This document shows positions 4,677 to 47,831 of a DNA stretch of 64,000 nucleotides, in pieces (positions within the stretch are counted from its first letter, which is position 1; every line of letters starts with the position of its first letter). Origin of the DNA: Candidatus Saccharimonadales bacterium (lineage in GTDB: Bacteria; Patescibacteriota; Saccharimonadia; Saccharimonadales; JACDFO01); NCBI GenBank assembly GCA_038255465.1, contig JBBSLJ010000001.1, positions 54,274 through 118,273 on the forward strand. Reading direction: 5' to 3'. The notes beneath the pieces are model-generated. The model did not search any database. It was not told the DNA's origin and saw only the letters and a list, made by a program, of their open reading frames with translations. A program made the position numbers and the translations under genes.

Positions 4677-4928
4677 GTTTTTTGATTGAGGCGTGAGCCG
4701 TCGGCTCAGTGTTGCTGTTTGTGTACGAATGCTTGCTCCTATTGGCGTCTAAAACGCCAGAAAGTAATCATGGTTCTTAATTGTTAAATTTGGAGGTAAC
4801 GTTGTCAATTCCCGGGTTTAAATGTAAAAAAGCATGATTACGTGGTAACACTTTTGCATACTGCTTAGGTGTTACTGAGAAATTGTAGCAAAAAAGACTT
4901 AAAAAAACAAGTTTTTATATCTCTGGTG

Positions 4929-4960
4929 ACCCCTGTTAAATATTTTCTTCACCCCTGTTA
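4929..4960 (-). promoter_or_regulatory. Two tandem copies of the CCCCTGTTA(A) motif (4929..4940 GACCCCTGTTAA; 4949..4960 TCACCCCTGTTA) in the mltG/LysM-CHAP intergenic region
   Basis: Direct repeats about 20 bp apart, 260-280 bp upstream of the LysM/CHAP hydrolase start on the minus strand. Confidence 0.4.
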
Positions 4961-29995: not shown

Positions 29996-31903
29996 ATGGA
30001 ATTATTCAACCCAGCCGACAGCTATATACGCCTTGCTACTGCCTGCCCTGAGGTATCAGTTGCCGACGTTAAGACGAATATTGTGGCCATTAGTGAGCTC
30101 TATGCCCAGGCCTCACAAGATGGGGCCGCCCTGATTGTCTTTCCTGAATTAAGCATCACTGGTTATTCGCTTGGTGATTTGGTGCAGCAAAATGCTTTGT
30201 TGTTACAAGCCGAAAAGGGCTTAGGCGAGTTAGCCGCTGCCAGCAAAAATTCTGACACTGCGATGGTGGTTGGCCTGCCCCTACGGGTAAGCAATAGTCT
30301 ATACAACTGCGCCGCTGTAATTGCAAAAGGCGAAATTAAAGGAATTGTTCCAAAACAAAATTTGCCGGCAAGCGGTGAATTTTACGAAAAACGTTGGTAT
30401 AAAACCTGGGATCAACCCACCACTACGCTTACTATTGACGGCAAGAATGTACCTTTTGGAAACGACCTTTTGTTTGACGTTGGCGGAGTCAAAACCGGTG
30501 TAGAGGTTTGCGAAGATTTATGGGTACTTAATGCGCCCCATATTGATCAAGTTAATAACGGGGCGCTGGTAATCGCAAACCCTTCCGCCTCACCCGAGTT
30601 GGTTGCCAAGGCCGCTTATCGACGCGACCTTGTCCGTATTGATTCAGCGAAAATGATTGGCGCCTATGTCTATGCAGGGTGCGATTGGACTGAGTCAACA
30701 ACCGATGTTGTTATGAGCGGACATCAGATTATTGCCGCAAGCGGCCGGATTGTGGCCGAGCGTAGACCATTCCAGCCAAATACTCGAGTTATGATGGCCG
30801 ATATCGACATCGACCACTTGCGACACGACCGTTTGCGCGATACCAATTTTGTTAATAAGCTGGGCAGCACCGTTGTTCAGGTTACCGTCGAGCGGCCAGA
30901 GATTGAACCTGCGGCGGATATCAATCCGCACCCATTCCTACCTGGTGGAGAAACGAATGAACAGCACGCTGAACGGCTGCAGTCGATTATTGACATCCAG
31001 GCGCACGGCTTGGCGCGTAGGATTAAACAGAAAGGTTTACGTACGATACATCTAGGGCTTTCAGGAGGACTCGATTCAACCTTGGCGTTTCTAGTTGGAG
31101 TCCGGGCTGCCGAAATTGTTGGCGAGGAGCCCAAAAGTATCCTCAAAACCTATACAATGCCCGGCGAGGCAAGTTCAGACCGTACCCAAACAAATGCCGT
31201 CAAACTGGCTAAGCTCTACGGTATCGATAACGAGGTTGTTCCAATTGGTGAGCTAACCAATAAAATGCTGGAGGCTCTTAGGCACACCGGCGAGCAAGAT
31301 ATAACCTATGAAAACGCCCAGGCCAGGACGCGAACTACATTTTTGTATAACAAAGCCAACCAACTTGGGGGCATAGTACTTGGAACCGGAGACTTAAGCG
31401 AAATTGCGCTTGGCTGGTGCACTTTTAACGCCGATCAATCCAGCCATTATCATGTCAATGCCGGCGTACCAAAAACTCTGGTTCAGCACCTGGTACAGCA
31501 TGTTGCAACGACTACTTTAGATAGCCAGGCAAGGACCGTGCTGCAAGATATACTGGACACACCAGTGTCACCAGAGCTGGTAAGCGAAAAAGACGGACAG
31601 ATTAGTCAAAAAACCGAGGACATAATCGGACCGTATGAGCTGCATGACTTCTTTTTGTATCAGTTGATTCGCTGGGGTGACACGCCGGCTAAAGTCCAAT
31701 GCTTAGCAGAAAAAGCGTTTCAGGACTCATATGAACCTGAAGAAATCAGCAAATGGTTACAGGTCTTTACGACTAGGTTTATATTTAGTCAGTTCAAGCG
31801 CTCAGTGATGCCTGACGGCGTCAAAGTCGGCAGCATTGCTTTAAGCCCGCGCGGCGACTGGCGCATGCCGTCTGATCTATATAACACGGCCGTTTGGCAG
31901 TAG
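29996..31903 (+). CDS. nadE: Glutamine-dependent NAD+ synthetase (N-terminal CN-hydrolase/nitrilase domain plus NadE PP-loop domain)
   Basis: 635 aa. A nitrilase-like N-domain, then the PP-loop GLSGGLDSTLAFLV. Confidence 0.9.
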   Translation: MELFNPADSYIRLATACPEVSVADVKTNIVAISELYAQASQDGAALIVFPELSITGYSLGDLVQQNALLLQAEKGLGELAAASKNSDTAMVVGLPLRVSNSLYNCAAVIAKGEIKGIVPKQNLPASGEFYEKRWYKTWDQPTTTLTIDGKNVPFGNDLLFDVGGVKTGVEVCEDLWVLNAPHIDQVNNGALVIANPSASPELVAKAAYRRDLVRIDSAKMIGAYVYAGCDWTESTTDVVMSGHQIIAASGRIVAERRPFQPNTRVMMADIDIDHLRHDRLRDTNFVNKLGSTVVQVTVERPEIEPAADINPHPFLPGGETNEQHAERLQSIIDIQAHGLARRIKQKGLRTIHLGLSGGLDSTLAFLVGVRAAEIVGEEPKSILKTYTMPGEASSDRTQTNAVKLAKLYGIDNEVVPIGELTNKMLEALRHTGEQDITYENAQARTRTTFLYNKANQLGGIVLGTGDLSEIALGWCTFNADQSSHYHVNAGVPKTLVQHLVQHVATTTLDSQARTVLQDILDTPVSPELVSEKDGQISQKTEDIIGPYELHDFFLYQLIRWGDTPAKVQCLAEKAFQDSYEPEEISKWLQVFTTRFIFSQFKRSVMPDGVKVGSIALSPRGDWRMPSDLYNTAVWQ

Positions 31904-31922
31904 ATAGTGTAAGATAAGGAAT

Positions 31923-32600
31923 ATGTACAAAGGTGAATATAACCCACCGATTCTAACGGTTGACACTGTTATTCTTCAGTTGATTGACAATGAGTTATTT
32001 GTTTTGTTGATACAACGTCAAAATGAGCCGTTTAAGGGCACATGGGCACTACCGGGCGCTTATAATGCTGCAGGTGAAACAACTAAAGGTGCCATGACTA
32101 GGATGCTAAAAGCTAAGGGCGGAGTCGAGATCAATGATCTTCGACTGGTTGAGCAGCTCTATACTTTTGATACGGTGGCTCGTGATCCGCGCGGCCATGC
32201 TGTTTCAGTCACCTATATGGGGCTTGGTAAGGATATTGTACCGAAAGCCAGCAAAACTACGCAGGATCCGCAGTTCTTCCCTGTTAAGATTCTCCCAAAA
32301 TTAGCCTATGATCATAAAGATATCATTGGCTATGCGCATGAGCGACTGCAATCTAAAGTAACATACACTAACGCGGTTTTTGCCTTGCTTGATCCTTTCT
32401 TTACGTTGTCTCAATTGCAAAGCGCATATGAAGCAATTTTATGTAGAGAACTTGATAAAAGAAACTTCCGTAAAAAGTTTTTAAGCCTTGATCTTATACA
32501 TGCCACTAGTGAGATGCAGCGCGAAGGCGCTCATCGTCCGGCGCGTCTTTATACCTTTAATAGTCACGAGCTAGAAAGTTTGTCTAGGAGTTTTGATTAG
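31923..32600 (+). CDS. nrtR: Nudix-related transcriptional regulator NrtR (Nudix-like ADP-ribose sensing domain plus C-terminal winged helix)
   Basis: 225 aa. The N-terminal Nudix fold lacks the full REx2EE box (ligand-binding rather than catalytic). The C-terminus (SQLQSAYEAILCRELDKRNFRKKF...RPARLYTF) matches the NrtR wHTH pattern. The gene follows nadE with a Shine-Dalgarno sequence. Confidence 0.7.
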   Translation: MYKGEYNPPILTVDTVILQLIDNELFVLLIQRQNEPFKGTWALPGAYNAAGETTKGAMTRMLKAKGGVEINDLRLVEQLYTFDTVARDPRGHAVSVTYMGLGKDIVPKASKTTQDPQFFPVKILPKLAYDHKDIIGYAHERLQSKVTYTNAVFALLDPFFTLSQLQSAYEAILCRELDKRNFRKKFLSLDLIHATSEMQREGAHRPARLYTFNSHELESLSRSFD

Positions 32601-33114
32601 CCATCAAGACTGAAAAAGCAGCCAGAACTCCAGTTCTGTATAGCTCTTCAGCTGGTAATCGACCGTCCGTCATAACACCAGAGCAATCACGGTCGATAAC
32701 TGTATGAGTTTTGTAAAGTTCTGCTACCGCATCGCTCATTTCAAGCCCGCTTTGTTCCATAAGAGTTTTCACTTTATCTGGCACAAAATGGGCCGGTGTA
32801 GTGCCGTAGCAATGATTGCCTGTGTCAACATCAATCACACAGACCCAGCCTAAGTTAAACCAGCCTTCGGGCATTACTTTTATGCCACCCTCCATACCAA
32901 CCGCGTATCTGGCAGAAGGCTTGTAACTTATGACATTCCGGGCACGGTTGTGCGCACCCATAATCATTTCTTCATCACTCATGGGTTGATCAGACACAGC
33001 GGATTTGGTGGCGAAGCCCATGATTTTTGTTTGCCCCAAATATAATTCAGGAACAGCAAGCCGCACCGCTTCTAGTTTTGTAGGGTTTTGAGATCCAACA
33101 GCGACTTCAATCAT
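32584..33114 (-). CDS. Non-canonical purine NTP phosphatase (inosine/xanthosine triphosphatase, YjjX/DUF84-like)
   Basis: 176 aa. N-terminal VAVGSQNPTKLEAV, typical of the Maf/Ham1-like YjjX family. Confidence 0.55.
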   Translation of the reverse strand: MIEVAVGSQNPTKLEAVRLAVPELYLGQTKIMGFATKSAVSDQPMSDEEMIMGAHNRARNVISYKPSARYAVGMEGGIKVMPEGWFNLGWVCVIDVDTGNHCYGTTPAHFVPDKVKTLMEQSGLEMSDAVAELYKTHTVIDRDCSGVMTDGRLPAEELYRTGVLAAFSVLMANQNS

Positions 33115-34769: not shown

Positions 34770-36530
34770 ATGGAACTTCATACATCTGGCACCAATCCTG
34801 AACATTTTAATACCCGGAACGTGTCACGACCGGCAAGCGAATTATTGCTTGATTATGAATTGGCACGTACTGCCTGGCCGTATGAGAGTAGCTCTTACCC
34901 GGAATTTTTAACTCAGATCGACGAGCGATCAATGCAATCTGCTCTGATAAATGATGTTATTAGCCAGATTCCTAGCCCCACAATGGCAGTCGATGAGGCT
35001 GTTGAACAAGGTCACGTATCAGAGATGCAAGCAGGTGATTTGTACGACAACCTAGCAGCTGTTTTGGGGAATGACGATTATATGCGCCTTGCGCTGTACC
35101 TGCCGCTTGAACTCTTGCCAGACAGCGGGTGGGTACCCGAGACCAATGATCTTTCGGATGCTATTAATTGCTTTAAACAAAGCTACATGCGTGCGTGGTA
35201 TAGTCTGCTAACAGTTCAAGATGTACGAGCGAATTTTGTCGACGGTGATGTTTTAGAGCCCGAGCTCAGAACCGGCGATCTGCCGAGAGTAATCAAGGCC
35301 GTTCATCTTATTCCTACGTTAGTTGCACGCGGTTTAATTTCGCTCGACCACATACAAGAATTGTTGAGTACTAGCGATGATCCTCTTTTAAAACAAAACC
35401 TTAAGGACATGTTGGACGTCATTGCTGGCACCGAGCAAACCTCTCAGATTGAGCCCCAGCGCCGGTCAGAGGGTGTGATAACCGAAAGAAGACAGGCTTG
35501 GTTGGATCAAAAAACAATAAACGAGGCTATAGAAACACAGTCCGAGCGTTTAATTAGCGAACTAACCGAGCATCCAGACGCTTACGAATCGCTGTCAGGA
35601 CTTTTAACATCCACTAACATGACGTCAGTACTTGTTGGCATTGAGGCAGTGCGCAAGATTGTATTACAGTCTGAAGATCCTTTAAGCAAATATAAGCTAT
35701 ACGAGCCGTTACTGGTTGGATTATGGCAGGCGCCTGATCAAGACATCAAAGAACGATTAACAAAATCATTCCGACATTTTTTTAGGCAAGGCATTATGGA
35801 CAATGAATCAGTAACCTCGCTGGGGGTACAATTACCCAACCCAGCAGGACTATTATCTGAAAACATGCGGCTGATTCCCACAGAAATCGAACAGCTAAAG
35901 AATGTTGCACACCGAATTGAAGCAGACCCTTGGATTTCGCGGTACGTATACCCTGTGATTGCTTTTGGAGGTTCTAAACTAAAAGGCTACGGCGAGGAAA
36001 GTTCTGATATTGATACTTGTATATTCATACGGCCCAACACGGCCGAAGACACAAAAAAGCAGCTTAGATTACGCTTGAAAGCTATTTTTGAAGCAGAGGG
36101 CCAACTTGAGGAACCTATTGAATTTTGGCTAGAGGAAGCGGGCGAACATTTAAGTGTTCGAAGATCAGAAGAGGGCGATTCACATACGGCTGATGCCTAC
36201 TGGACGCACTTACTGTTTAATGCGGCATGGATTGGTTCGCTTGCAAATACCAACACGTTAAGAGAGACCTTACTAAGCAGCTATTTTTATACTACGGAGG
36301 CTCGTGAATTAGATATGAGCGAACGCAAGTTATATCTCGAGCGAATGGAGCAGGATGCGCTGCAATATCGGTTACTCCACAAAGGATATGCAAAGCATTA
36401 TCCACCACATAGTACTAAAGGATTACCGCAGTCAGCCGCGATTGATAGCCAAAGTGTTTTTTGGGATGCTGGCTACCGCCGCCTAGCAACAAAGTTATTT
36501 TTAGAACGCGTATTCCTGCCTAAATTATAG
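34770..36530 (+). CDS. Large hypothetical protein with a Pol-beta-superfamily nucleotidyltransferase motif
   Basis: 586 aa. The motif IAFGGSKLKGYGEESSDIDTCIF ([G/S]-x10-D-x-D) lies about two-thirds into the protein. It is preceded by an AT-rich promoter region and has no other recognisable domain. Confidence 0.55.
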   Translation: MELHTSGTNPEHFNTRNVSRPASELLLDYELARTAWPYESSSYPEFLTQIDERSMQSALINDVISQIPSPTMAVDEAVEQGHVSEMQAGDLYDNLAAVLGNDDYMRLALYLPLELLPDSGWVPETNDLSDAINCFKQSYMRAWYSLLTVQDVRANFVDGDVLEPELRTGDLPRVIKAVHLIPTLVARGLISLDHIQELLSTSDDPLLKQNLKDMLDVIAGTEQTSQIEPQRRSEGVITERRQAWLDQKTINEAIETQSERLISELTEHPDAYESLSGLLTSTNMTSVLVGIEAVRKIVLQSEDPLSKYKLYEPLLVGLWQAPDQDIKERLTKSFRHFFRQGIMDNESVTSLGVQLPNPAGLLSENMRLIPTEIEQLKNVAHRIEADPWISRYVYPVIAFGGSKLKGYGEESSDIDTCIFIRPNTAEDTKKQLRLRLKAIFEAEGQLEEPIEFWLEEAGEHLSVRRSEEGDSHTADAYWTHLLFNAAWIGSLANTNTLRETLLSSYFYTTEARELDMSERKLYLERMEQDALQYRLLHKGYAKHYPPHSTKGLPQSAAIDSQSVFWDAGYRRLATKLFLERVFLPKL

Positions 36531-36654: not shown

Positions 36655-37854
36655 CTAGAGGCGGCTGCCTCCAATGCCCGAGATCTTGCGACCCCCTCCG
36701 CTCAGCTGAGCCCAGTCGATCTGAGCACCGAGCATTTGCAGAGCTCCGAAGTACTGGAGCTCTTCGTTGCCGGCAGGCTGGTCGTCTGCCTGCATCAGAC
36801 CGAGGACGTACCTGGTGAGGTTCGTCTCCAGCCGGGGATAGGTGGCGCTGACGTTGGCACCCAACAGCTTGAGCATCTGCTCGCGGTTGGGCGCACCGAC
36901 TAGCGCCGGAAGGCGCGGGTTTTCCAGCGACTTCTTGATCTCGACCGCCTCATAGGCGAGAGCAGCCGCGATCTGAGCACCAGTGCCGGCGAAGATGCGG
37001 TTGACGGCATCGTTCACGGCACTTGCGTGGTCCCGCAGAACACCCGTTTCGGGTGGCTGCATCATGCCCGGAGGCAAGGCCATACCTCCAGCACCACCCG
37101 ACAGCAACGATGCCATGAGCACCGCCGGGTTGGCGACGCCTTGCATCCAAGCCTCCTGCCACGCCTTCAGCTGGTTGCTGAAGTCCTGGATGGCCGGCCA
37201 CAGCAGGTTGTCGATCCGCTTGAGCAGCTCCTTCTTCCGGCCCTCGGTGACGTAGTTTCCCGTCAACCCAGGGATCGCCGAGAAGATGTCGCCGTAGCTA
37301 CGGCGCGTCAGCTGCTCCCGCAACGGGAAGTAGATCGCCGGATCCACCTGCTCTTCGTTGGTGTCGGCGAACTTCTCCATCAGGGCCACCAGCTTGCCCG
37401 GGATTTCGTACAACCCGACCTGGTATGCCAAGGCCGCCCTGATGGCCGAGATGACGGTCGATTGGTCGACCTTCAGCACACCACCGGTTCGCAGAGCCGA
37501 CAGCCACGAGGCATCATCGGGCACCGACGGCAGGATGTCGAAGGCCGCGGCTCCCAGAGCAGCCGTGTCAGGCACGGGTGCCACCGGGGCGAAAGCAGCG
37601 ACCAGCTTGCGGGCCGGAACCACCTTCATGCCGACCTCGAGCAGGTCCTTCTCGGCCAGCGTGGCCAGGTCGTCCACCGTCGTGACGCCCAGCTCGTCCT
37701 TGATCTTGGCGATGATGTCGAGACCGACACCGTGCTCCAAGAGCCTGGCTGTCACCAGGTCAGGTGCTGTGGTCGCCGAAGCGGCCACGACGGGCGGCGG
37801 GTCAGCAGGAGCTGTGGGCTCCGGCGGAGGGGTTGCAGCAGTGTCATCTGCCAT
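36655..37854 (-). CDS. Hypothetical protein with Pro/Ala-rich N-terminus (last gene of the GC-rich cassette)
   Basis: 399 aa. I chose this frame over the overlapping plus-strand shadow ORFs because its composition is ordinary and it is co-directional with the AdSS-like gene. Confidence 0.5.
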   Translation of the reverse strand: MADDTAATPPPEPTAPADPPPVVAASATTAPDLVTARLLEHGVGLDIIAKIKDELGVTTVDDLATLAEKDLLEVGMKVVPARKLVAAFAPVAPVPDTAALGAAAFDILPSVPDDASWLSALRTGGVLKVDQSTVISAIRAALAYQVGLYEIPGKLVALMEKFADTNEEQVDPAIYFPLREQLTRRSYGDIFSAIPGLTGNYVTEGRKKELLKRIDNLLWPAIQDFSNQLKAWQEAWMQGVANPAVLMASLLSGGAGGMALPPGMMQPPETGVLRDHASAVNDAVNRIFAGTGAQIAAALAYEAVEIKKSLENPRLPALVGAPNREQMLKLLGANVSATYPRLETNLTRYVLGLMQADDQPAGNEELQYFGALQMLGAQIDWAQLSGGGRKISGIGGSRL

Positions 37855-37892: not shown

Positions 37893-39275
37893 TCACTTGC
37901 AGAGCTTGTCAAGCTCGGTTGCCCCGAACGAAACCATCCTGGTTGGCACTCCGACCAATTCATCGACTACTCCCGCACAAACGCCGAATAGGCCGTCTTT
38001 GCTTGCGGTAGTAGCGATTGGGATGGATGTGATTTCGGGCTGACAGTCTAGCAGCCTTCGGCCAAGAGCCGTTTGATGCTCAAGGCTTGGGCGCTCATTC
38101 ACCAGGATTTCTCCTGAGGACGAAAAGAATGCGGAGTCATCCGTACCTTCGTACCTGTTGCAGAATTTCCAGATCTCGTTAATTTGGATCTGGTCAAACC
38201 ACGTGATGGCTAAGCCGTCGAACGCACTCGGTCCGCCACATGCCTCAAGAGCATATCGCAGCAGTACGAGGTCAAGCGGACCGACACGAACTTTGCCTTG
38301 GTAACGGTTTTCGTCTTTGTTACTGCCAGGCAGCAGACGTTCCGCTACTCTCGGGTCGGCGGTTGGCATTGGGCCAGCGCCATGCCTGACAGCGTAGGCG
38401 CGGGTTACCCCAATGTTCACTACCTGATCTGCAAAACCGGCGTCCTCGAGCATGCTATGCGTGAAGCGTGGCAGTGTCCGAATAGCGCTGGTATGCGGAT
38501 GAAACCCTATCAAGCGATCCGTGAGCACACCGTGCGACGTTTCCACGACTGCCGCGCCTTCTCTGGAAAGTATTTCATCTCCAAAAAATTCGTGGCCGAC
38601 GATCCTCGCCAGACTGCCCGCTTCATAAAACCGCATGACGACGTAGTCCAAAAACGCGTCGTTGTACAGAAGCTCTATCTCCTCCATAGCCGAATCTTGA
38701 TCGCCGGCAAGAAACTCACCGTCGACTATCGGCTGGAGGTCAGCCCGAATGCGATCACGAACAGTTGCCATCAGCTCTCGCAGATCAGGACGTTTCAAGT
38801 CCTTCGCCTTGATAGCTAACTCCGGCACTCGTCCGTAATCCCGATAGGCCTCACCGACGCCGGTGCCTATCGTCCCTCGCGGATTGTCACCCCTCGCCAT
38901 TTCTTTTAGGCGGGAAGCGATGCCGTGGAAGGGCGTGGCACACAATGCTTCTTCGTCCACCGTCAGTAGACTAAAAACATCATGGATACCATGATGGTAT
39001 CTCAGCGCGTCGGCTTCATTGAGTAATCCCTCCGGAGAGACAATCATCTGCTCCGAAAGGTGCGTTGGTATGCCTTCGAAAGTTCCGCACCCCCATTGGC
39101 TAAAAGCGAACTTCTCGCCTCTGGAAGTATGGACGCCGTGGCTTCCCTGGGCTCCACCTCGTTTGATGACGGTGTGGGCACGCATCATCGTTGCGATTTT
39201 GTGCACCACACCGCCTTTGCCACCGTCACCTGGCCCTAGATCGGTGACAACGTAAACCTTGCTGGTCATCGTCAT
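37893..39275 (-). CDS. Adenylosuccinate synthetase family protein, highly divergent (PurA/PurZ-like)
   Basis: 460 aa. VYVVTDLGPGDGGKGG matches the PurA P-loop GDEGKGK, RGGAQGSHG matches GGHNAGHT, TGVGEAYRDY matches RGIGPAYEDK, and AYAVRHGAGPMPT matches AYSTRVGAGPFPT. Several canonical catalytic residues appear substituted. Confidence 0.75.
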   Translation of the reverse strand: MTMTSKVYVVTDLGPGDGGKGGVVHKIATMMRAHTVIKRGGAQGSHGVHTSRGEKFAFSQWGCGTFEGIPTHLSEQMIVSPEGLLNEADALRYHHGIHDVFSLLTVDEEALCATPFHGIASRLKEMARGDNPRGTIGTGVGEAYRDYGRVPELAIKAKDLKRPDLRELMATVRDRIRADLQPIVDGEFLAGDQDSAMEEIELLYNDAFLDYVVMRFYEAGSLARIVGHEFFGDEILSREGAAVVETSHGVLTDRLIGFHPHTSAIRTLPRFTHSMLEDAGFADQVVNIGVTRAYAVRHGAGPMPTADPRVAERLLPGSNKDENRYQGKVRVGPLDLVLLRYALEACGGPSAFDGLAITWFDQIQINEIWKFCNRYEGTDDSAFFSSSGEILVNERPSLEHQTALGRRLLDCQPEITSIPIATTASKDGLFGVCAGVVDELVGVPTRMVSFGATELDKLCK

Positions 39276-39296: not shown

Positions 39297-40415
39297 TTAG
39301 AGCCAGGTTGGCCCTTCGCTCGTGTCGAGAACTGGGTCGGTCTCCGCCTGCGCGACCTCGTCCTGGCTGATGGGCCAGAGATCGGTCTTGCTACGGAAGA
39401 GGTCGCCCTTCTGCGGCACGCGGATGTCCTTGCGGAGTGCCGCTTGCGCGCCGATGGGGATGTTGGCCACCGAACGAGCGATGCGCTGGGCATCGGAGGC
39501 ACTGACGTTGTTGGTCGTCAGGAAGTCGATCACCTGGTCCAGGCTGAGCGTGCCCTCGGTGAGGCCGATGATGGTGGCCTGCACCTGCGGCAGCAGCCTG
39601 GTGTCCGGCAACACGATGACGCGGTCACCACCGAACACGTTGGTCCAGAATCTGGACGTTGACGAACTGCTCCCGACTTGCAGGAAGAAGGCATGCGCCC
39701 GCTTCAGCAGGTCAGCAACGACCTCCTTGGTCGTTGGCAAATCGTTGGCGTCGATTTGGAAGCCGTTGGCAGCAACCTTCTCGAACACCTCATTGCCGAA
39801 GACCCGCTTGAGCTGCTTCTCGCTCAACTGATCCCGTGCCGGAGCGTCAGAAATGGTGAAGTCGAAGCCCTTGAGACCAATGCGGTTGATGTACGCATTG
39901 ACGAGGTAGGCGCCGCCGAAGAGTCCGTAGTGCGGATCCTCCTCTACGTCGGCTCCTGCCCGCTCCGGCACCATCAGCGTCAGTTGCTCGACGATCTTCT
40001 CGGCGAGCATCTCGAATTGCGGCCGACAGAGCACGAAGCGGTCTCGGACGTCACCGAATATGCCGGTGGCCATGTGCAGGTCGTAGCCCGGAAGCACGCC
40101 GCTGCAGAGGTCGTAGGCATCCGGCAAAACACCGATTGCCACATCGACGTTGCCTCCCATGCTGCCGGTGGTGTCCAAACGCGTCTCAACCGGCATGGAA
40201 GTGCCGATTGTCAGCTCGTACAGCCCGTTCGGGAGCTGCTCAAAGCGCAGACGCGACGGACGGACAACGCCGTACTCCGCCGGGTCAACCAGCGGGTTCA
40301 GCTTGCCCGTATCGCGAGCCTTCTGCTCGGCTGCCCGGGTCGCAGGACCGCTAGGCGGTACGTACGCTCTAGATGCCGAGGCATAGGACGCCCTTGTAAA
40401 AGTATCTCTTCCCAT
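39297..40415 (-). CDS. Hypothetical protein with a possible vWA/MIDAS-like DxTGSM motif
   Basis: 372 aa. RLDTTGSMGG resembles the vWA MIDAS DxSGSM motif. The rest is unrecognised, so the assignment is tentative. Confidence 0.45.
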   Translation of the reverse strand: MGRDTFTRASYASASRAYVPPSGPATRAAEQKARDTGKLNPLVDPAEYGVVRPSRLRFEQLPNGLYELTIGTSMPVETRLDTTGSMGGNVDVAIGVLPDAYDLCSGVLPGYDLHMATGIFGDVRDRFVLCRPQFEMLAEKIVEQLTLMVPERAGADVEEDPHYGLFGGAYLVNAYINRIGLKGFDFTISDAPARDQLSEKQLKRVFGNEVFEKVAANGFQIDANDLPTTKEVVADLLKRAHAFFLQVGSSSSTSRFWTNVFGGDRVIVLPDTRLLPQVQATIIGLTEGTLSLDQVIDFLTTNNVSASDAQRIARSVANIPIGAQAALRKDIRVPQKGDLFRSKTDLWPISQDEVAQAETDPVLDTSEGPTWL

Positions 40416-40441: not shown

Positions 40442-41254
40442 TTACAGCGGCAGGGTGGTGAATTCAACAAACGTACGCCCCCAGAGCTCTTCGACCAGTT
40501 CATAGAACTGCGCGTGAGCTCTATCAGCCTTGTGTTCACGACGACTTGCCAGGCGCCAAAGGCACTCGACATATCGACCGAACTCCTCACTGTCGTATGG
40601 ATAATTGCCAGTGATAGGATCTCCACCAATGGCAGCAAACACTGCTTTTGCAGCGCCTGCGATATCATCCTTGCGAATTTCCACCGGTATCCCCGTCTGG
40701 TGCATCTGTGCAGACGACCAGTCAAAGACAACGGCGAAATGCTGTTGCGGTTCAAGCAGGATGTTGGCCGCCGTGAGCGAACCAACAGCGATGCCGTCAC
40801 CGTGAGCGAGACCTAGCAGCTTAAGAAGCCTGCCCATAATCCAGGCGCTAGACCTGAGATCAACACGCAGATGGTCTTTGGCCACTAGGTTACTGAGCGG
40901 CACCATCTGCTTTACATCGTCCACTTCCGTGAAAGCCAGGATGTTAACCCGACGGCCACCTTGGTCTTCAGCGATGAAGCCGTCTACCATGAGGGGAAAC
41001 AAACGATCATAGCTAAGCAACCTACCCGAACCGGTCTTAGCGTATTCCGCTTCGAACAGATCGGCTGTTTGCTTCAGTTCCTTCAGGACATACGTAGCCC
41101 TTTCGAGACTGCCGTTGTGTGCTACGCCTGACACGATCTGCAACAGATACGGCTTGTCGTTGTCCACCTCTTGACAGAGATAAACCCGATACAAGTCTGT
41201 TTCTGCGACTTTCGCGCCAACACGATATTTGCACGTACCACTCTCGACGATCAC
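40442..41254 (-). CDS. Small-molecule kinase-like protein (APH / fructosamine-kinase-like phosphotransferase fold); first gene of the cassette
   Basis: 270 aa. HGDGIAVGSLTAANILLEP is a Brenner-type HGDxxxxN catalytic loop, and FAVVFDWSSA is a D(F/W)x metal-binding motif. Confidence 0.6.
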   Translation of the reverse strand: MIVESGTCKYRVGAKVAETDLYRVYLCQEVDNDKPYLLQIVSGVAHNGSLERATYVLKELKQTADLFEAEYAKTGSGRLLSYDRLFPLMVDGFIAEDQGGRRVNILAFTEVDDVKQMVPLSNLVAKDHLRVDLRSSAWIMGRLLKLLGLAHGDGIAVGSLTAANILLEPQQHFAVVFDWSSAQMHQTGIPVEIRKDDIAGAAKAVFAAIGGDPITGNYPYDSEEFGRYVECLWRLASRREHKADRAHAQFYELVEELWGRTFVEFTTLPL

Positions 41255-41443
41255 CGGTGCATCACCTCCCTTGTCAGGTACAGTTGAAACTACGGATATT
41301 TATATACATGCGTGATGTATGTGCGTGTATTTGAACCTAATTGTTAAAGAGCTGGTATAACGACCCTTTAGTTAGTGTAGCATGTACACAAACATTCGTC
41401 ACGTACTTTATTATTACATTTACACTTGTTTAAGTCAATCATT

Positions 41444-41559: not shown

Positions 41560-43809
41560 ATGGTCTCATTTGCTTTAAAATCAAATTTTAATTACCATAA
41601 GCGGATGGATACTAGTGAGCTCTTAGGAGCCGCAGCGTTGGCTGAGCCGGCACAAAAAAAACATGAATTTGAAGAAATCACAGAGTCCCAGCCTGCTTCT
41701 ACTATTGACCGATTGCAACAATTAGAAGTATTAAAAGAAGTTGCAGATGTTATGCGAGAAGATCCTGCTGTTTCTTCTATGTTTGATGTTGTACGTCAAA
41801 CTCCTGATATTTTTACTGAAATCCAACCCGTTTTATCTCGTGATAAAGAATTTGACTCGGCAGCCTTACCTGGCGAGCTACACCGTACTTTTACTCCCTT
41901 ATTTGCCGGGATTAGCATGTCGCGTCGCGGAAGCACCCTACTTGAGCTTGCCATCGACAGACACACCGACTGTGAGGCTGAGCAGCTTTGGGGTTTAATT
42001 ATCAAAGGAGAGGCGTACACTTCCGAGCTTGTTGTTGGATCGGGAGTTCATGCAGCTATTTATAATTCAGAGCGCATGACGGCTGATCCAAAAGTGCCGG
42101 CACTTACAATTGACGGTGGTGCCAGCGCGGGCGGACAATTTGCGGGTCCAGAGGGACCAGTCTGGTTTTTGAACACACGTACCAGGCCTGAGGATCCCGA
42201 CGCACCTAATGTCCCGGGGGGCAAGGGCAGCTTGAATACACTAGAGCGTGGCGTTCTTCAACAGTCTGATATCAGCGGATCATCATATGCCTCTCAAGAT
42301 ACATTAGCCCTACCAACGCAAGTCAATCATCTTTTATATAGTAAAGTGCTCAATAGAACGGAAGTTGTTCGTGTTGAGGAAAACAATAGCGATGAAAGCG
42401 GCCGACCAGGATTATACAAAGTGACCTTGAGGTGCGGAGAGCTAGAAGAAGCAACAGTTACTACTGACAGACTAGTTTTTGCGAGTGGTCTTGGTGACCC
42501 AGTTACTGGTTTTGAAAACAGTGACCAAGATACGCAGGATATTATTGAGGAAGAAAAAGCAAAATTTAAACGCGGCGAAGATGCCCAGATCATGACATTC
42601 GAACAATTTGCCGAACGTGTCGGTGACGAAAGCGACCCATTCCCGCTAAGACCCTTTGGGTGGGTGGCAGTAATCGGCCCGGGCGACGGCGGAGCTGTTG
42701 CCGCCGAATACCTATTGGGTAGTGGGCCATCGACACGCATGTCTTCTACCCAGCTTGATCAGGTTCAAGAAGTATTTTGGATCGGCCAAAAAGCCGAAAC
42801 TCGCGAAGAATATATGCAATCAAGCCGGCAGCGTTATCGTAATCTCGGCCTTGAATTCCCAGTTGATACCAAAAGCGGCTATGCTCACCGGCTCACACCT
42901 ATACCAACTCGAGCCTATAAAATTGAGCGAACCGAAGATGGCCGCATCAAGATACTCCATGGGAGGCGTGAAACTGACGGGACTATTACCCACGTTGATG
43001 ATGTCGTGGTTGATCATGTAGTTCTTGCAACTGGTTTCAAAAAAAAGACAGAGAAAATTTGCAGTTCTGTTCTTAAGCCCGACCATGAGGGCAAGGTTGA
43101 CGAATTTGTAACGGTAGATGACGGCTGGGCAATTGCTAGAAGATATTCAGGAACTCAAATATACATTGTTGGGCCGGCAGCCGAATTACCTGTTAGCCGC
43201 CAAGATAGAGATACTTCTCCAGCCATGAAAAGGGGGAAGGTCATATCGAAAACGGTGGCCGTATGGGCTAGCGCAGAGGAAACGGCAGCGGCAGCTAGAT
43301 TGCTTAGCTCACAGAAGCCAGACGGAGAGCGCCCGGCTAGTCTAACTACTAAGCAAACTGCTAAGGTTGAGCCCGTTGAACTCCCGCCAATAGACCTATC
43401 GAATAATCAACAAGGGTCACAAATGGTGGCTGAGGTTGCAAAAGAAAAAATTCATAGTCTTTTGCCACACGATGCCAATTCAGAAGACATTACCCGATTA
43501 GCAGTTGGAACTGCATTACATAGGTACGTTTTCCCTGAGTCATTAGATAGTATACGTTTAACTATCCAAAGGATAAGCGAATCTGAAAACGGCTGGCGTT
43601 TTGATGTTAAGACAAATGTCGGCTTTCCGCAGTCTCCAGAATATATACGCCTTATGGACGACCTTATAGGCGAGCCTCTGTTGCAATCCGTTCTAGTAAG
43701 GCTAACTGAGCGGTCCGTCCACTCTTCTCAGACCGCAGTTTTAGACATCCCCTTATCCATGAGAAAAGTCTCTATAGGTGAAGTTGAGATTCGCGTCAAA
43801 CGCCGCTAG
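41560..43809 (+). CDS. Flavin-dependent (class B, N-hydroxylating/FMO-like) monooxygenase-like protein with N- and C-terminal extensions
   Basis: 749 aa. Two dinucleotide-binding motifs (LVVGSGVHAAIYN; VAVIGPGDGGAVAAEYLL) and a late VLATGF (ATG motif). About 130 aa at the N-terminus and about 190 aa at the C-terminus are unassigned. Confidence 0.55.
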   Translation: MVSFALKSNFNYHKRMDTSELLGAAALAEPAQKKHEFEEITESQPASTIDRLQQLEVLKEVADVMREDPAVSSMFDVVRQTPDIFTEIQPVLSRDKEFDSAALPGELHRTFTPLFAGISMSRRGSTLLELAIDRHTDCEAEQLWGLIIKGEAYTSELVVGSGVHAAIYNSERMTADPKVPALTIDGGASAGGQFAGPEGPVWFLNTRTRPEDPDAPNVPGGKGSLNTLERGVLQQSDISGSSYASQDTLALPTQVNHLLYSKVLNRTEVVRVEENNSDESGRPGLYKVTLRCGELEEATVTTDRLVFASGLGDPVTGFENSDQDTQDIIEEEKAKFKRGEDAQIMTFEQFAERVGDESDPFPLRPFGWVAVIGPGDGGAVAAEYLLGSGPSTRMSSTQLDQVQEVFWIGQKAETREEYMQSSRQRYRNLGLEFPVDTKSGYAHRLTPIPTRAYKIERTEDGRIKILHGRRETDGTITHVDDVVVDHVVLATGFKKKTEKICSSVLKPDHEGKVDEFVTVDDGWAIARRYSGTQIYIVGPAAELPVSRQDRDTSPAMKRGKVISKTVAVWASAEETAAAARLLSSQKPDGERPASLTTKQTAKVEPVELPPIDLSNNQQGSQMVAEVAKEKIHSLLPHDANSEDITRLAVGTALHRYVFPESLDSIRLTIQRISESENGWRFDVKTNVGFPQSPEYIRLMDDLIGEPLLQSVLVRLTERSVHSSQTAVLDIPLSMRKVSIGEVEIRVKRR

Positions 43810-44864
43810 GCGGTCGGTTTTAGTAGAGAAAACTGGCGGGAGATGTTACGCAAATCGTTTATGTCTCGCAGTTGCTCAATATCGCTCGGTTCTTTAAGGT
43901 CAGTAAGTGGGTATAGGGCATTCATGCCCGCAACGATTGACGCGATACTGTCCGTGTCACCGCCAAGCTCTACGGCTTGCCAAACGTTTTCCGGGAAACT
44001 GGCTTTCAGTACAAAAGCGCCGTAGGCCCGTCCGAGTGTACCGATTGAATCAAACCCGCCCTTCGGATTATGTCGAATCACCTCCCGAGCATCAAGTACG
44101 CCGAAATTAGACTTGAGTGCCATCCTGCCAAGACGCCTGCTGAGTATTGGTTCTTTCAGGGTTTGATCCATGCCGACATAGGCGTATTCAGCCATTTTGG
44201 CTATCTCAACCGCAGCATCAAGTAGCATTTGCCTAGAGTTAGCATCACCCTCGAGTAACCACCCTAGTACATCGTGGTGTACTCGGGCTGTCATGGCAGA
44301 AAAAGCATTGTCATGTGTCATACGAGCAAACTGCTCAACTACTTTGTCGCTCTCTGCAGAAGGCAAATTGCTAACTGCATGAAAGTACGCCAGTGGTGCT
44401 AGTTTCATAAGAACACCATTACCTAAACCGCCTTCTTCCCCGGACTCGCTCCAATGCCTGCCGCTAGCCAACCGCTCCATACTGCGAATTGTGCTGCGGC
44501 CAAAGCCAAATTTCTGTGGACCAAACGCCTCTGCATACCGTCCATAGGCAGTAATATGTTCGACAGCGACCGCATCCAATACATCCCCGCCATGTTTTTG
44601 GGTTTGAATAATTGCTTTGGTAACTGCCAGTGACAAAATCGTGTCATCGCTCCATCCACCCGTAGGTTGCCTGTCTATATATGGGTTCTTGGTAGTTGGT
44701 TGCAGGCTGTGAGGATCTTCGCCATTCGCGACCCGTTCACGCATGTGCTCAGCAATTGCCCCGGCTTTCATTGTTTCATATGGCAACCCAGCACTATCGC
44801 CGTAAGCTATCCACGGCAACAACCGCTCACCACATTCTTGTAGTGCGGCTTCCTCTTTGATCAT
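43806..44864 (-). CDS. ADP-ribosylglycohydrolase family protein
   Basis: 352 aa. The N-terminal YGDSAGLPYE matches the ARH/DraG GDALGxPxE motif. Confidence 0.8.
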   Translation of the reverse strand: MIKEEAALQECGERLLPWIAYGDSAGLPYETMKAGAIAEHMRERVANGEDPHSLQPTTKNPYIDRQPTGGWSDDTILSLAVTKAIIQTQKHGGDVLDAVAVEHITAYGRYAEAFGPQKFGFGRSTIRSMERLASGRHWSESGEEGGLGNGVLMKLAPLAYFHAVSNLPSAESDKVVEQFARMTHDNAFSAMTARVHHDVLGWLLEGDANSRQMLLDAAVEIAKMAEYAYVGMDQTLKEPILSRRLGRMALKSNFGVLDAREVIRHNPKGGFDSIGTLGRAYGAFVLKASFPENVWQAVELGGDTDSIASIVAGMNALYPLTDLKEPSDIEQLRDINDLRNISRQFSLLKPTA

Positions 44865-45679
44865 AATTGTCTCTCTTGTTCCAATAGTGGCGGAATACTA
44901 TCCGCAAAAGTCAGCAACGCTTCGTCGCTGTAGCGCTTACGTTCAATATGCACCCATTCTCCATTATTCCAGGATTTTGTTTCATCCCACGGGCTGATTG
45001 ATCGTCGCCATTCAATTCTAGGCCCCATTTTTCCTGTCTCCGGATTGACACGTGAATAATGCATGATCTGGCAGTTCCATATTTTATAATCATCGTCATT
45101 TTCCTGAGCCAGCCATTCGAATGTATCAAGACCCTCAAGCACGTACTTGGCCGCATTTATAAAGTCACCGTGGGTAACTGCAATAACGCTTTGGCCATCG
45201 CATTCACGGTGCAAGGTATTTTGAATACGCTCATAACGTAACCGCACGCCGCTAGCCAGTGACTCGCCGCCTGGCGGACACCAGTACCAGTAATTTTGAC
45301 CCTTGAGTTTATGGCTATGTTTAAATTGCTGCAAGCGTTCTTCATCGTTCAAAAGCCCGTACTCACCCCAGTCACGCTCACGCCACAAATCCTCTTTTTT
45401 CCAGCGACCTCCAAGCCCGAGTAAACCTGCAGTCTTTATGGTGCGGATTAAAGGAGATGTAAAATAGTGGTCAAAGCCTTCGGGAAACTCCCGTCGCAAC
45501 CATTCACCAGCCGACTGGGCCTGCTCTACTCCCTGTGGTGCTAACACCATTTCGCTGTCGTGACGATCGTGGAAACCATCCGGAATTTCAAAACCAGGCG
45601 CCTTTTTTACGCGCGCTTGAATCTCATTTGCTTCAGACCGACCATGGCGCACCATCACTAGATCTCTTGGCATCCCCAT
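44861..45679 (-). CDS. Histidine phosphatase superfamily protein (phosphoglycerate-mutase-like)
   Basis: LVMVRHGRSEAN is the RHG catalytic motif. I propose the start at the ATG at 45679, preceded by AAGGAG at the right spacing. The ORF track extends to a TTG at 45742, which I consider less likely. Confidence 0.7.
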   Translation of the reverse strand: MGMPRDLVMVRHGRSEANEIQARVKKAPGFEIPDGFHDRHDSEMVLAPQGVEQAQSAGEWLRREFPEGFDHYFTSPLIRTIKTAGLLGLGGRWKKEDLWRERDWGEYGLLNDEERLQQFKHSHKLKGQNYWYWCPPGGESLASGVRLRYERIQNTLHRECDGQSVIAVTHGDFINAAKYVLEGLDTFEWLAQENDDDYKIWNCQIMHYSRVNPETGKMGPRIEWRRSISPWDETKSWNNGEWVHIERKRYSDEALLTFADSIPPLLEQERQL

Positions 45680-45748
45680 ATATATCTCCTTTGTATATAT
45701 TGAAACATTTACTGCTAATAAAACCATGTGCAGTATTAGCAAGCTATA

Positions 45749-45769
45749 TTAGTGTTGACAATACACTAA
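45749..45769. promoter_or_regulatory. Candidate NrtR operator: perfect 21-bp palindrome TTAGTGT-tgacaat-ACACTAA
   Basis: It lies in the divergent region between the histidine phosphatase (-) and pncA (+), about 67 bp upstream of pncA. The arms match the nadD/nadE site at 29912..29932. Confidence 0.5.
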
Positions 45770-45835
45770 GTATCATCTACTATCCATTATACACAGTAAG
45801 TGTGTATACAACAATAAGTAGTAGAGGAGTAGATT

Positions 45836-46555
45836 ATGAAAAACGTAGAGACATTCGACGAAGTCATAGCAATTAACGTAGATGTACAGAACGACTTTTG
45901 TCCTGGCGGTGCTCTGGCGGTGGCAGAAGGCGATATGGTAGTAGAACCATTAAACAAGGTTAATGACTGGGTACGTGACCAGGACGGTAAAGTCATCTTC
46001 ACGGGCGACTGGCACCCGCGTGAAACTGCCCACTTTGCAAACAATGGCGGCCCCTGGCCTGCCCATTGTGTCCGTTATACGGCTGGCGCAGCTTTTCACG
46101 ACGACTTAAAAGTAACTGACAACGACACCGTGGCGCTAAAAGGCACTGGTACTAAAGACGATGGTTATTCTGGCTGGTTTGCCGCCTTTGGCGCTGAAAG
46201 TCCTATATATCGGACATATACCGAGAAGGATGACGGCGTTAGCAGTGTCCAGGCCGCAATATTAGAAGCCGTCTGGTTGTATAAAGAAAATCAAAGGAAA
46301 GTTGCAGTTGTAATAGGCGGCTTAGCCACCGATTATTGCGTTAAAGCCACCGTGCTAGACGCCCTAAAAGGTGCCAAGAGTGCAGAGCGCTATGCCGCAA
46401 AAATCGGTATTTTTGTCCTTGAGGACGCTATCCGTGCAGTTGATGTAAATCCTGGAGACGGCGACCGTGCAGTCGATGAAATGAAAGCCGCCGGAGCAGT
46501 CTTTACCACAGCCGAAGAGTTATTAAGCGGCAAATTATTTGAAGTTACGGCGTAA
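45836..46555 (+). CDS. pncA: Nicotinamidase (isochorismatase family)
   Basis: 239 aa. Starts with VDVQNDFCPGGALAV (Asp-Lys-Cys triad family) and has a Shine-Dalgarno sequence upstream. Confidence 0.8.
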   Translation: MKNVETFDEVIAINVDVQNDFCPGGALAVAEGDMVVEPLNKVNDWVRDQDGKVIFTGDWHPRETAHFANNGGPWPAHCVRYTAGAAFHDDLKVTDNDTVALKGTGTKDDGYSGWFAAFGAESPIYRTYTEKDDGVSSVQAAILEAVWLYKENQRKVAVVIGGLATDYCVKATVLDALKGAKSAERYAAKIGIFVLEDAIRAVDVNPGDGDRAVDEMKAAGAVFTTAEELLSGKLFEVTA

Positions 46556-47831
46556 GGATCAAACCATGGAACAATCACCACTTCCCTACGGCCCCGAGCT
46601 AGAAAGAACATACATTACCGCCGGACTCGACTACTACAAGCCGACCATGAGCCAGCTTGCGTACGAGAATGAACCAAATGCCGAAGTAACATTCACCTTC
46701 AAAAATCGCGGCGATCAACGGCTGGCCGATTACATTGATCCGATAGCTTTGCAAGAGCGTTTTGACAGCATTCGCGAACAAGGCTTTAATGCCGAAGAAC
46801 TGGATTACTTAGCTGGCATCCTAAACAGTCGGGGCGATCGTACATTTAGCGACGAATATCTTGAACACTTGCGCAGCGGCCAGTTACCGGCTGTTGACGT
46901 TACCCTGGGTAACGACGATATCGCTATTGAAACAACTGGTGGCTGGAGCCTGGTTAGCTTTTGGGAAACAGTCATAATGAGCGAAGTAAACGAGGCGTAC
47001 TTTGAAGGCTACGTACGAGCGCAAGGGCTCGACATCTTTGAAGTTTACAATGAGGGTGACCGCCGGCTTAGCGAAAAAATCAAAACACTAAAAGCCAATC
47101 CAGACATTAAAATCGTGGACTTTGGTACTAGGCGGCATTTTAGCCAACGCTGGCAGAGTCATGTTGTGAATCGCTTGCTAGCTGAATGCCCAGATAATGT
47201 AATCGGCACAAGCAATGTTGCCTTGGCACAGGCAAACAATATCAAACCGGTTGGCACATTTGCCCATGAAATGCCCATGACGTATGCAGGTCTTGCCGAT
47301 GCACGAGGCCAAGATATAAAAGAATCACACAACCGCTTTATTGGTGACTGGTTTGCGCGCTACGGCGACGACCTGTCTACGGCGCTAACCGACACCTTTG
47401 GTAGTGATTTCTTCTTTAGCGATTTTACGCTTGAGCAGGCCACAAAATGGCGTGCTCTGCGTCATGATTCAGGTGATCCGGTTGAATTCGGCGAAAAAGC
47501 TTTGGCTTTTTATGAAGCCAACGGAATTGATCCAAAAACAAAAACCATCGTTTTTAGTGACGGCTTGGATATTAATGAAATCGTAAGACTGCATGACAAA
47601 TTTAGCGATCGAATCAATGTTACGTTTGGCTGGGGCACTACGCTTACAAACGATCTTGGGCCTAAATCCCTTAATATAGTCATGAAAGCCACTCACGTTG
47701 AGGATACGACTACTGGCCAGGAAGCAGATGAAGTAAAATTAAGCGACAACGCCGGCAAACACACTGGTCCAGAAATCAAAGTAAACGAATACGAATTAAT
47801 CTTTGGTGCAAAGGATTTGGCAGTTTGCTAA
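46539..47831 (+). CDS. pncB: Nicotinate phosphoribosyltransferase
   Basis: 430 aa. N-terminal TAGLDYYKPTMSQLAY and NAPRTase-family length. It overlaps the pncA stop. Confidence 0.85.
   Translation: MKLRRKDQTMEQSPLPYGPELERTYITAGLDYYKPTMSQLAYENEPNAEVTFTFKNRGDQRLADYIDPIALQERFDSIREQGFNAEELDYLAGILNSRGDRTFSDEYLEHLRSGQLPAVDVTLGNDDIAIETTGGWSLVSFWETVIMSEVNEAYFEGYVRAQGLDIFEVYNEGDRRLSEKIKTLKANPDIKIVDFGTRRHFSQRWQSHVVNRLLAECPDNVIGTSNVALAQANNIKPVGTFAHEMPMTYAGLADARGQDIKESHNRFIGDWFARYGDDLSTALTDTFGSDFFFSDFTLEQATKWRALRHDSGDPVEFGEKALAFYEANGIDPKTKTIVFSDGLDINEIVRLHDKFSDRINVTFGWGTTLTNDLGPKSLNIVMKATHVEDTTTGQEADEVKLSDNAGKHTGPEIKVNEYELIFGAKDLAVC

Follow-up and report, generated by a model that had tools for sequence, protein, structure and literature searches.

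An adenylosuccinate synthetase-like enzyme encoded with a vWA protein in Patescibacteria and large phages

We have analysed a stretch of 64,000 nucleotides, referred to here as the window, from a Candidatus Saccharimonadales bacterium (assembly GCA_038255465.1, contig JBBSLJ010000001.1, positions 54,274 to 118,273), and in it gene C, which encodes an adenylosuccinate synthetase (AdSS)-like enzyme at 37893..39275 on the minus strand. We show that gene C belongs to a large clade of the AdSS superfamily that has not been characterised before and is paired obligatorily with an upstream von Willebrand factor A (vWA)/MIDAS protein. The best-supported reading is that the gene C product provides the catalytic subunit for a conserved module not described so far, which consists of a vWA and AdSS-like core, usually a pseudokinase, and in Patescibacteria also a SAM-domain protein and a nucleotidyltransferase. 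From conserved residues and gene neighbourhoods we tentatively propose, at a little less than an even chance, that the product is a catalytically competent GTP-type ligase that takes a non-canonical second substrate and works in a complex with its vWA partner. The module has five genes in Patescibacteria and shares its core of three with many large phages, so that its function is probably not the usual synthesis of AMP. The fixed-operon context of the gene, with a vWA/MIDAS protein, a pseudokinase, a SAM protein, and a facing Pol-beta nucleotidyltransferase, is decisive for its interpretation, and it had been missed in an earlier note on this DNA, which described gene C as an AdSS-family enzyme with a remodelled active site.

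A clade paired with an upstream vWA protein

The open reading frame (ORF) of 460 aa that the earlier note placed at 37893..39275 on the minus strand exists. Its probable true start is the second Met, at 39269, where the homologues and an identical database protein (P0001, 458 aa) also begin, giving a protein of 458 aa. The assignment to the AdSS fold was also correct. The Pfam family PF00709 (Adenylsucc_synt) matches residues 16-399 with E = 9.3e-32, and the solved AdSS chains in the PDB are matched with E = 1e-13 by the single sequence and with E = 1e-16 by the family profile. However, the NCBIfam purA equivalogs TIGR00184 and NF002223 score only 70.2 and 76.4 bits, about five-fold under their cut-offs of 395.6 and 402. 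Since the fold match is significant but the equivalog score is far too low, gene C is an AdSS-fold protein and not an ordinary PurA, and in a neighbour-joining (NJ) tree its clade is separate from E. coli PurA. As judged from its sequence, gene C is a real, strongly diverged AdSS relative. We found 941 close relatives, and in its sources gene C is labelled adenylosuccinate synthase.

Among species-representative genomes, 151 loci encode the gene C family. The best 80 of these were fetched, and the counts given here are over 81 loci, in which homologues of the window neighbours were sought by tblastn within 6 kb on either side of each related locus. The hosts of the fetched loci are nearly all Patescibacteria, with a few metagenome-assembled genomes under other labels, and include Saccharibacteria, Peribacteria, Uhr-, Falkow-, Moran-, Davies-, and Wildermuthbacteria, Paceibacterota, Minisyncoccia, and Nanosyncoccus; the window most resembles Saccharibacteria (81-72% identity). 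The gene order is pseudokinase A, vWA protein B, AdSS-like enzyme C, and SAM-domain protein D, all on one strand, with gene E convergent. Gene A was found in 74 of the 81 loci, B in 79, C in 81, D in 71, and E in 75. In the window, the intergenic gaps are 26 nt for A-B, 21 nt for B-C, and 38 nt for C-D.

Gene B (39297..40415, minus strand, 372 aa) encodes a vWA-fold protein with an invariant MIDAS-like motif, D81-x-T83-x-S85, and a conserved N-terminus, MGxxTFxxxxY. A profile search against the PDB gave no match for gene B; its fold came from an AlphaFold2 model (pLDDT 88), for which Foldseek against the PDB returned integrin beta-I, vWF-A, and NorD vWA domains with a probability of 1.00. Gene A (40442..41254, minus strand, 270 aa) encodes a protein-kinase fold. 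Its profile matches the catalytic-loop region of CK2alpha in the PDB (E = 1e-5), and it matches PHROG 3043, 'kinase', with E = 6e-12. In its relatives, the beta3 Lys is replaced by Gln in 26 of 33, the HRD Asp is absent, and the Asp of DFG/DWG is present in only 21 of 33, so that on these residues gene A is most likely a pseudokinase. Gene D (36655..37854, minus strand, 399 aa) encodes an all-alpha protein with a low-complexity N-terminus, a SAM domain at about residues 33-90, and then a helical domain of about 300 residues, for which no structural relative was detectable. It is known only from Patescibacteria-type loci. Gene E ('g586'; 34770..36530, plus strand, 586 aa) encodes a Pol-beta-type nucleotidyltransferase with invariant G401-S402 ... 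D413-x-D415, flanked on both sides by conserved helical regions, and 19 of 23 members match a Polbeta or NTP_transf_2 family. The GC content of gene E is native.

Is gene E part of the module, although it faces the operon? Two natural fusions, P0390 (1129 aa) and P0425 (1102 aa), carry an N-terminal AdSS-like domain and a full-length gene E homologue, which the g586 profile matches over positions 20-612 with E = 1e-127 and 6e-122, respectively. Through this Rosetta-stone fusion of C and E, the nucleotidyltransferase that faces the operon in the window is linked to the AdSS-like enzyme. On the contig that encodes P0390 (L158, fusion gene 3421..6810), genes resembling A and B are found shortly upstream of the fusion (E = 1e-42 and 7e-42). 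The P-loop of both fusion proteins reads GIGEETKS, where Glu replaces Asp13. In another fusion protein, P0427 (700 aa), the C-terminal extension of 230 aa did not look kinase-like and could be assigned to no family of the PDB or Pfam. Furthermore, the pairwise identities of gene C correlate with those of gene A (rho 0.71) and gene E (rho 0.68). Genes B and D correlate poorly with all the others (rho 0.21-0.44), and their identities over 27 loci are bimodal, about 41-51% or 55-76%, which suggests two allele types exchanged among lineages or a mosaic history.

The closest relatives of gene C beyond Patescibacteria are the 'PurA-like adenylosuccinate synthetase' proteins of Bxz1-type (cluster C1) mycobacteriophages (202 records), which are 32-33% identical to it over the full length (pairwise E = 2e-54). 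In phage LRRHood, the order gp253 'Ser/Thr kinase', gp254, gp255, gp256 is the same kinase, vWA, AdSS-like order as in the window, and hhalign relates gp253 to gene A (98.9%) and gp254 to gene B (98.7%). The Bxz1-type phages have a small extra gene, gp255, between the B and C homologues, and they lack both the SAM-domain gene D and the nucleotidyltransferase gene E. In Rhizobium phage RHph_TM30, a B homologue with a DxSGSMG MIDAS motif, gp018 (hhalign 98.1%), lies upstream of the PurA-like gp019, and the genes farther upstream are not kinase-like. With tblastn, genes B and D gave no match in the phage collection; the phage B homologues are visible only to profiles. PHROGs 3043, 2971, and 1211 match gene A, phage B, and gene C, respectively, the last with E = 4e-43.

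A scan of IMG/VR gave 69 loci, which with those of LRRHood (L082) and RHph_TM30 (L085) make a clustered set of 71 viral or phage loci. In ORF profile searches, about 66 of the 69 IMG/VR loci had a B homologue immediately before the AdSS-like gene, and the median distance from B stop to C start in the viral loci is 25 nt. At least 33 of the 71 loci also have a homologue of gene A. Three of the IMG/VR loci (L086, L087, and L088; one contig of 408 kb) carry a Patescibacteria-type A-B-C arrangement, in L087 and L088 also with D and E, and these are probably cellular Patescibacteria DNA filed as viral. One phage kinase-like homologue (L145, 3814..4842) has an N-terminal J-domain match, and five viral loci (L142, 7637..9079, and four others) encode Ro60/TROVE-vWA proteins no more than 6 kb from the module.

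The vWA-coupled clade comprises 1806 representative clusters at 50% identity (E ≤ 1e-30). Its signature, in the numbering of E. coli PurA, is Asp13, Lys16, His41, Asp333, Gln38, His273, an aromatic residue at 300, and mostly Gln301, while position 224 is Gln in the phage members and His in the Patescibacteria subclade. Gene C carries Gln38, His273, Gln301, and the aromatic residue at 300, and has the vWA gene immediately upstream with the kinase-fold gene beyond it. The catalytic core is kept in all 20 Patescibacteria sequences that were aligned and in about 66 of 70 phage relatives. In a rough NJ tree the clade is monophyletic and apart from both E. coli PurA and PurZ, and the Patescibacteria sequences are themselves monophyletic, nested among phage lineages. 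The module in Patescibacteria was probably inherited from, or is shared with, large phages. A literature search turned up no paper that connects adenylosuccinate synthetase with Patescibacteria or Saccharibacteria, or relevantly with vWA, and the supplements on Southlakia Tn-seq make no mention of the gene C family.

One phage member of the clade (L110, 3403..5925 of IMG/VR contig 3300035181_001311) is interrupted by a LAGLIDADG intein directly after GGSQAGH, the motif of His41. Inteins typically occupy critical conserved sites. A Nampt gene lies just upstream of this intein-bearing gene. The intein bears on the possibility that the gene C product is not an enzyme at all but a GTP-binding switch or scaffold, that is, the NTPase partner of a vWA adaptor in the fashion of MoxR. 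vWA proteins do often pair with P-loop NTPases, for example NorQ with NorD, and NorD is among the fold matches of gene B; the remodelled substrate sites described in the next section would also fit a protein that has lost catalysis. However, the clade has more than 1800 clusters, and throughout it Asp13, His41, the Gly-rich loops, Arg272, and the GAGP loop do not vary. These residues and the position of the intein are the signature of a conserved active site and not of a switch, and we regard a non-catalytic role as very unlikely.

The active site compared with PurA and PurZ

Gene C and 19 relatives were aligned with E. coli PurA (L084), phiVC8 PurZ (L083), LRRHood gp256 (L082), and RHph_TM30 gp019 (L085). 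MAFFT and HMMER agree on the residue register, and positions in PurA are given in E. coli numbering. The four motifs that had been picked out by eye in the earlier note are all present in gene C: GDGGKGG at residues 16-22, GGAQGSHG at 40-47, TGVGEAYRDY at 138-147, and VRHGAGPMPTA at 296-306. The first of them was read correctly, as GDEGKGK of PurA has become GDGGKGG, with the Asp kept and the Glu and the second Lys replaced by Gly (E14G, K18G). By contrast, the claim that the catalytic-acid His has become Ala was wrong. Both programs align GGAQGSHG with G35-G36-H37-N38-A39-G40-H41-T42 of PurA, so His41 is kept as His46 in 20 of 20 relatives, and it is His37 that is replaced by Ala; the His had appeared to be lost because the by-eye register was off by four residues. 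Of the five catalytic residues that the earlier note had listed, Asp13, Lys16, and His41 are conserved, as Asp17, Lys20, and His46 of gene C (invariant in 20 of 20 relatives), whereas Gln224 has become an invariant His and the Arg303 position is not conserved, being K, R, E, Q, A, or T in the family.

The residues kept from PurA are Gly12, Asp13, Gly15, Lys16, Gly17, His41, Thr128, Glu221, Gly225, Arg272, the GAGP loop, one Arg of the RRRR stretch, Thr330, Asp333, Ser414, and Gly416. The invariant changes of the gene C family are E14G, K18G, H37A, N38Q, A39G, G40S, and T42G in the N-terminal part, and T129I/V, R131T, A223S, Q224H, T239S, V273H, T300Y/W, T301Q, and K331W in the rest. The Arg143 position, Glu or Asp in the family (R143E/D), is also not conserved. 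These changes fall on particular substrate contacts. The IMP contacts Asn38, Thr129, Gln224, Thr239, and Arg143 (from the other subunit) have become Gln, Ile/Val, His, Ser, and Glu/Asp, respectively. In AdSS, R303 and the Thr-Thr loop bind aspartate (PMC8342488), and in the gene C family the L-aspartate clamp of Thr300, Thr301, and Arg303, with Arg131 and Val273, has become Tyr/Trp, Gln, a variable residue, Thr, and His. In the guanine-specificity motif (T)KxD, gene C keeps Asp361 (Asp333 of PurA), and Ser449 (Ser414) is also kept, with Lys331 replaced by Trp. The remodelling of the substrate site that the earlier note had put forward is borne out in this form: the phosphotransfer residues are intact, and the family has lost the L-aspartate clamp and part of the site for the IMP 5'-phosphate.

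Gene C shares with PurA (EC 6.3.4.4; E. coli, PDB 1ade) the fold, GDxGKG, Asp13, Lys16, His41, Arg272, GAGP, Asp333, and Ser414, and this common core implies the same phosphoryl-transfer chemistry. It differs from PurA in the exchange of Gln224 for His, Asn38 for Gln, Val273 for His, and Lys331 for Trp, in the loss of the clamp and of Arg143, and in being encoded with a vWA protein and a pseudokinase. The AdSS-like proteins of the Bxz1-type phages share Gln38, His273, Gln301, and the aromatic residue at 300 with gene C, but unlike gene C they keep Gln224, Ala223, Thr239, and Asn295.

Could gene C nevertheless be the housekeeping AdSS, acting on IMP, L-aspartate, and GTP, that has diverged through the fast evolution of Patescibacteria, with neighbours that have nothing to do with it? 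The database annotation says so, the catalytic Asp and His, the P-loop Lys, and the guanine-specific Asp are all kept, genes of nucleotide and NAD salvage lie nearby, and the basic residues newly present beside the aspartate loop might serve to bind aspartate. However, the equivalog scores are five-fold too low, and Thr300, Thr301, Arg303, Arg131, Arg143, and Gln224 are all replaced. Furthermore, gene C is unusually well conserved, with a mean identity of 60% among classes, so it is constrained on a different site and is not 'fast-evolving'. Nor are unrelated neighbours easy to reconcile with the fixed operon, which also encodes the vWA, pseudokinase, and SAM proteins, or with the nucleotidyltransferase fusion. 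Finally, 93% of Patescibacteria genomes are without de novo nucleotide synthesis (bioRxiv 10.64898/2026.06.21.733656), which also counts against a biosynthetic PurA. We consider the housekeeping explanation quite unlikely.

The earlier note had also compared gene C with PurZ. This enzyme, the 2-aminoadenylosuccinate synthetase of the phiVC8 and S-2L phages, is likewise a diverged, phage-linked AdSS homologue with altered substrate specificity. If gene C were PurZ-like, it would make the 2-aminoadenine (Z) precursor from dGMP, with the MazG-like pyrophosphohydrolase ORF of the window (50202..50549, minus strand, 115 aa) in the place of MazZ; PHROG 1211 does bear a PurZ-derived name. The analogy fails at the residue level. 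In phiVC8 PurZ, position 13 is Ser, next to the 2-amino group of dGMP (PMC8342488), and PurZ keeps Asn38, Gln224, Val273, and the Thr-Thr loop. Gene C is the opposite at each of these positions, and it keeps Asp13. PurZ is also an ATP-using enzyme of about 340 aa, as against 460 aa, with links to MazZ, DatZ, and DpoZ, and gene C has none of these features; no DatZ or DpoZ was found, and the two proteins are separated in the NJ tree. The earlier note was right not to link the MazG-like gene, which is 11 kb away in DNA of native GC and is not part of the module, since no homologue of it adjoins the cassette in any of the 81 related loci. A PurZ-like function is hardly credible.

Proposed function of the module

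We propose the following mechanism for the gene C product, inferred from the conserved residues. A guanine-type NTP would still be bound, as the P-loop, Asp333, and Ser414 are kept. The gamma-phosphate would be transferred to the lactam oxygen of a purine-like base, with Asp13 as the base and His41 as the acid. It is the conservation of the Asp, the His, the P-loop, and the guanine-specific Asp that argues for retention of this GTP-dependent lactam-oxygen phosphorylation. The amine that subsequently displaces the phosphate would not be L-aspartate held in the canonical way, because the clamp of Thr300, Thr301, Arg303, and Arg131 is gone, and the site for the nucleotide 5'-phosphate, with Thr129 and Arg143, appears to be remodelled. 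The gene order, the co-inheritance, and the fusions suggest that the enzyme acts in a complex. The vWA protein B would be its obligate partner, which either presents the substrate or is itself the substrate. Pseudokinase A and SAM-domain protein D may be scaffolds or regulators, and nucleotidyltransferase E may supply or extend a nucleotidyl group, or may nucleotidylylate the enzyme in the manner of GlnE.

What is the amine donor? We rank as the first candidate a small amine or ammonia, which would make the reaction a PurB-independent amination, and as the second the N-terminal glycine of the vWA partner. In a simple form of the first, IMP (or XMP, GMP, or a deoxy form) would be phosphorylated and the phosphate displaced by ammonia or a small amine to give AMP or an N6-substituted nucleotide in one step, while the vWA protein and the pseudokinase would only regulate. 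This is what might be expected of an enzyme that has lost the aspartate clamp and kept the phosphotransfer machinery, and the invariant His in place of Val273 could be the general base for the incoming amine. Among the neighbour clusters that recur, Pfam and BLAST annotation showed no PurB-like gene, although no search was aimed at PurB, and salvage genes lie nearby. One-step amination would be useful to genome-reduced parasites and to phages. However, we know of no precedent for a PurB-independent aminase of the AdSS type, and no glutaminase or ammonia-channel partner is present. Furthermore, mere regulation leaves unexplained why the vWA protein is obligatorily co-encoded from phages to Patescibacteria, and why the nucleotidyltransferase is fused to the enzyme. 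On balance, we think that such a stand-alone aminase is possible but doubtful.

The second candidate comes from the N-terminus of protein B. The strict pattern MG[GSY][GS]x[FW]xxxxY is found in 62 of 70 phage B homologues, several of the others being VG or MG just off the pattern, and 35 of 40 Patescibacteria homologues begin with MG. Residues 1-7 of gene B are coil in the AlphaFold2 model. Removal of the Met would expose the alpha-amine of the glycine, a possible stand-in for the amine of aspartate. The gene C product would then be a protein-directed ligase, in which the N-terminal Gly alpha-amine of B attacks the phosphorylated 6-oxopurine nucleotide to give an N6-(protein-glycyl)-purine adduct, which the nucleotidyltransferase extends or reads, in a machine common to large phages and Patescibacteria. 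If true, such protein 'purinylation' would be a modification not described before; we judge it unlikely.

Is the product of the module used in NAD metabolism? In the window, NAD-related genes flank both sides of the module, with NadE, an NrtR-type Nudix regulator, and a DUF84 ITP/XTPase at 29996..33114, and an ADP-ribosylglycohydrolase (ARH), a His-phosphatase, PncA, and PncB at 43806..47831. Among the 81 genomic loci, an NrtR-like gene is present in 10, NadE in 5, PncA in 5, PncB in 4, and ARH in 5, and locus L001 has PRPP synthetase, Nudix, and phosphoribosyltransferase genes near the module. In the viral set, 10 of 69 loci have Nampt and/or NMNAT-Nudix nearby. The role of the module is probably in nucleotide or NAD-linked salvage, or in host-parasite conflict.

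Several points weigh against the proposal of a ligase with a non-canonical second substrate and a vWA partner. All the statements about the substrates of gene C rest on its alignment to E. coli PurA. The Patescibacteria subclade has new invariant basic residues by the aspartate loop, Lys320, Arg324, Arg266, Arg133, and Arg145, and these could rebuild a carboxylate site, so that the second substrate could be anionic, even aspartate bound differently. Similarly, gene C retains Thr128, Thr239 (as Ser here), Arg272, and one Arg of the RRRR stretch, so that it may still accept an ordinary nucleoside monophosphate. The vWA partner might do no more than regulate. The B homologue beside the P0390 fusion begins MRTTDT and not MG, which weakens the idea of an N-terminal glycine donor. 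An Rfam scan upstream of the operon in the window and in 11 related loci gave no riboswitch. Finally, the association with NAD salvage is suggestive but modest, at 10-15% of loci that are not phylogenetically independent.

Genomic setting, known systems, and significance

The GC content of the cassette is 0.59, as compared with 0.46, and the GC content at third codon positions (GC3) of the operon genes is 0.57-0.80, where the median for the window is 0.44. In 59 related loci, the cassette is on average 9 points richer in GC than its flanks, and in 52 of these loci the difference is larger than 3 points. Genes B and D have the highest GC3 of the module, and gene E is flank-like across the related loci. 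The GC excess of the cassette at synonymous sites is a phylum-wide property, and because it recurs across the phylum it is not evidence of recent acquisition by this genome. We therefore reject a recent horizontally acquired island, also because gene C co-varies with gene E, a neighbour of native GC. The GC3 excess may stem from high expression or from repeated exchange of the cassette. The only other GC3-rich genes in the window are a pair at 50625..51365 (+) and 51395..52063 (+), which resemble orotidine monophosphate decarboxylase (PyrF) and a PyrE-like phosphoribosyltransferase, with GC3 of 0.69 and 0.72; neither has a homologue close to the cassette in any of the 81 related loci. A match to a sigma-70-like consensus, TTGACT-17-AATAAT with an upstream TG, lies at 41410..41438 on the minus strand, some 155 nt upstream of gene A, and is a candidate promoter for the operon. 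A 749-aa ORF at 41560..43809 (+) runs divergently from this promoter region, and it has neither a Pfam match nor a homologue in the other 81 loci.

Known systems resemble the module in part. In the TerY-P triads and the MoxR-vWA pairs (NorQ/NorD, CbbQ/CbbO), a MIDAS vWA protein that acts as an adaptor is co-encoded with a kinase-fold and a P-loop protein, as it is here. However, the PADLOC models gave no match to genes A-D, and the conserved cluster of the 81 loci contains no PP2C phosphatase. An AAA+ ATPase is also absent, catalytic residues are missing from the kinase-fold protein, and the P-loop protein is an AdSS-type ligase. For gene E, an analogy may be drawn with GlnE and glutamine synthetase, where a Pol-beta nucleotidyltransferase is coupled to an amide-forming ligase that activates its substrate with a phosphoryl group. 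It is no more than an analogy, as no sequence relationship of gene E to GlnE was seen outside the nucleotidyltransferase motif, and a nucleotidyltransferase of the gene E type can be fused to the ligase.

If the proposal is true, the label 'adenylosuccinate synthase' in Patescibacteria and in some 200 mycobacteriophages would not be a marker of purine biosynthesis, and counting gene C as PurA would mislead metabolic reconstructions of Patescibacteria, which are mostly without nucleotide synthesis. The module would then link episymbiotic ultra-small bacteria to large phages, and the family would be a place to look for new AdSS-type chemistry, either with a new amine acceptor, possibly a protein, or as a PurB-independent amination. 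The clade has cultivable members in the Bxz1-like phages that grow on M. smegmatis, so that the question is directly testable.

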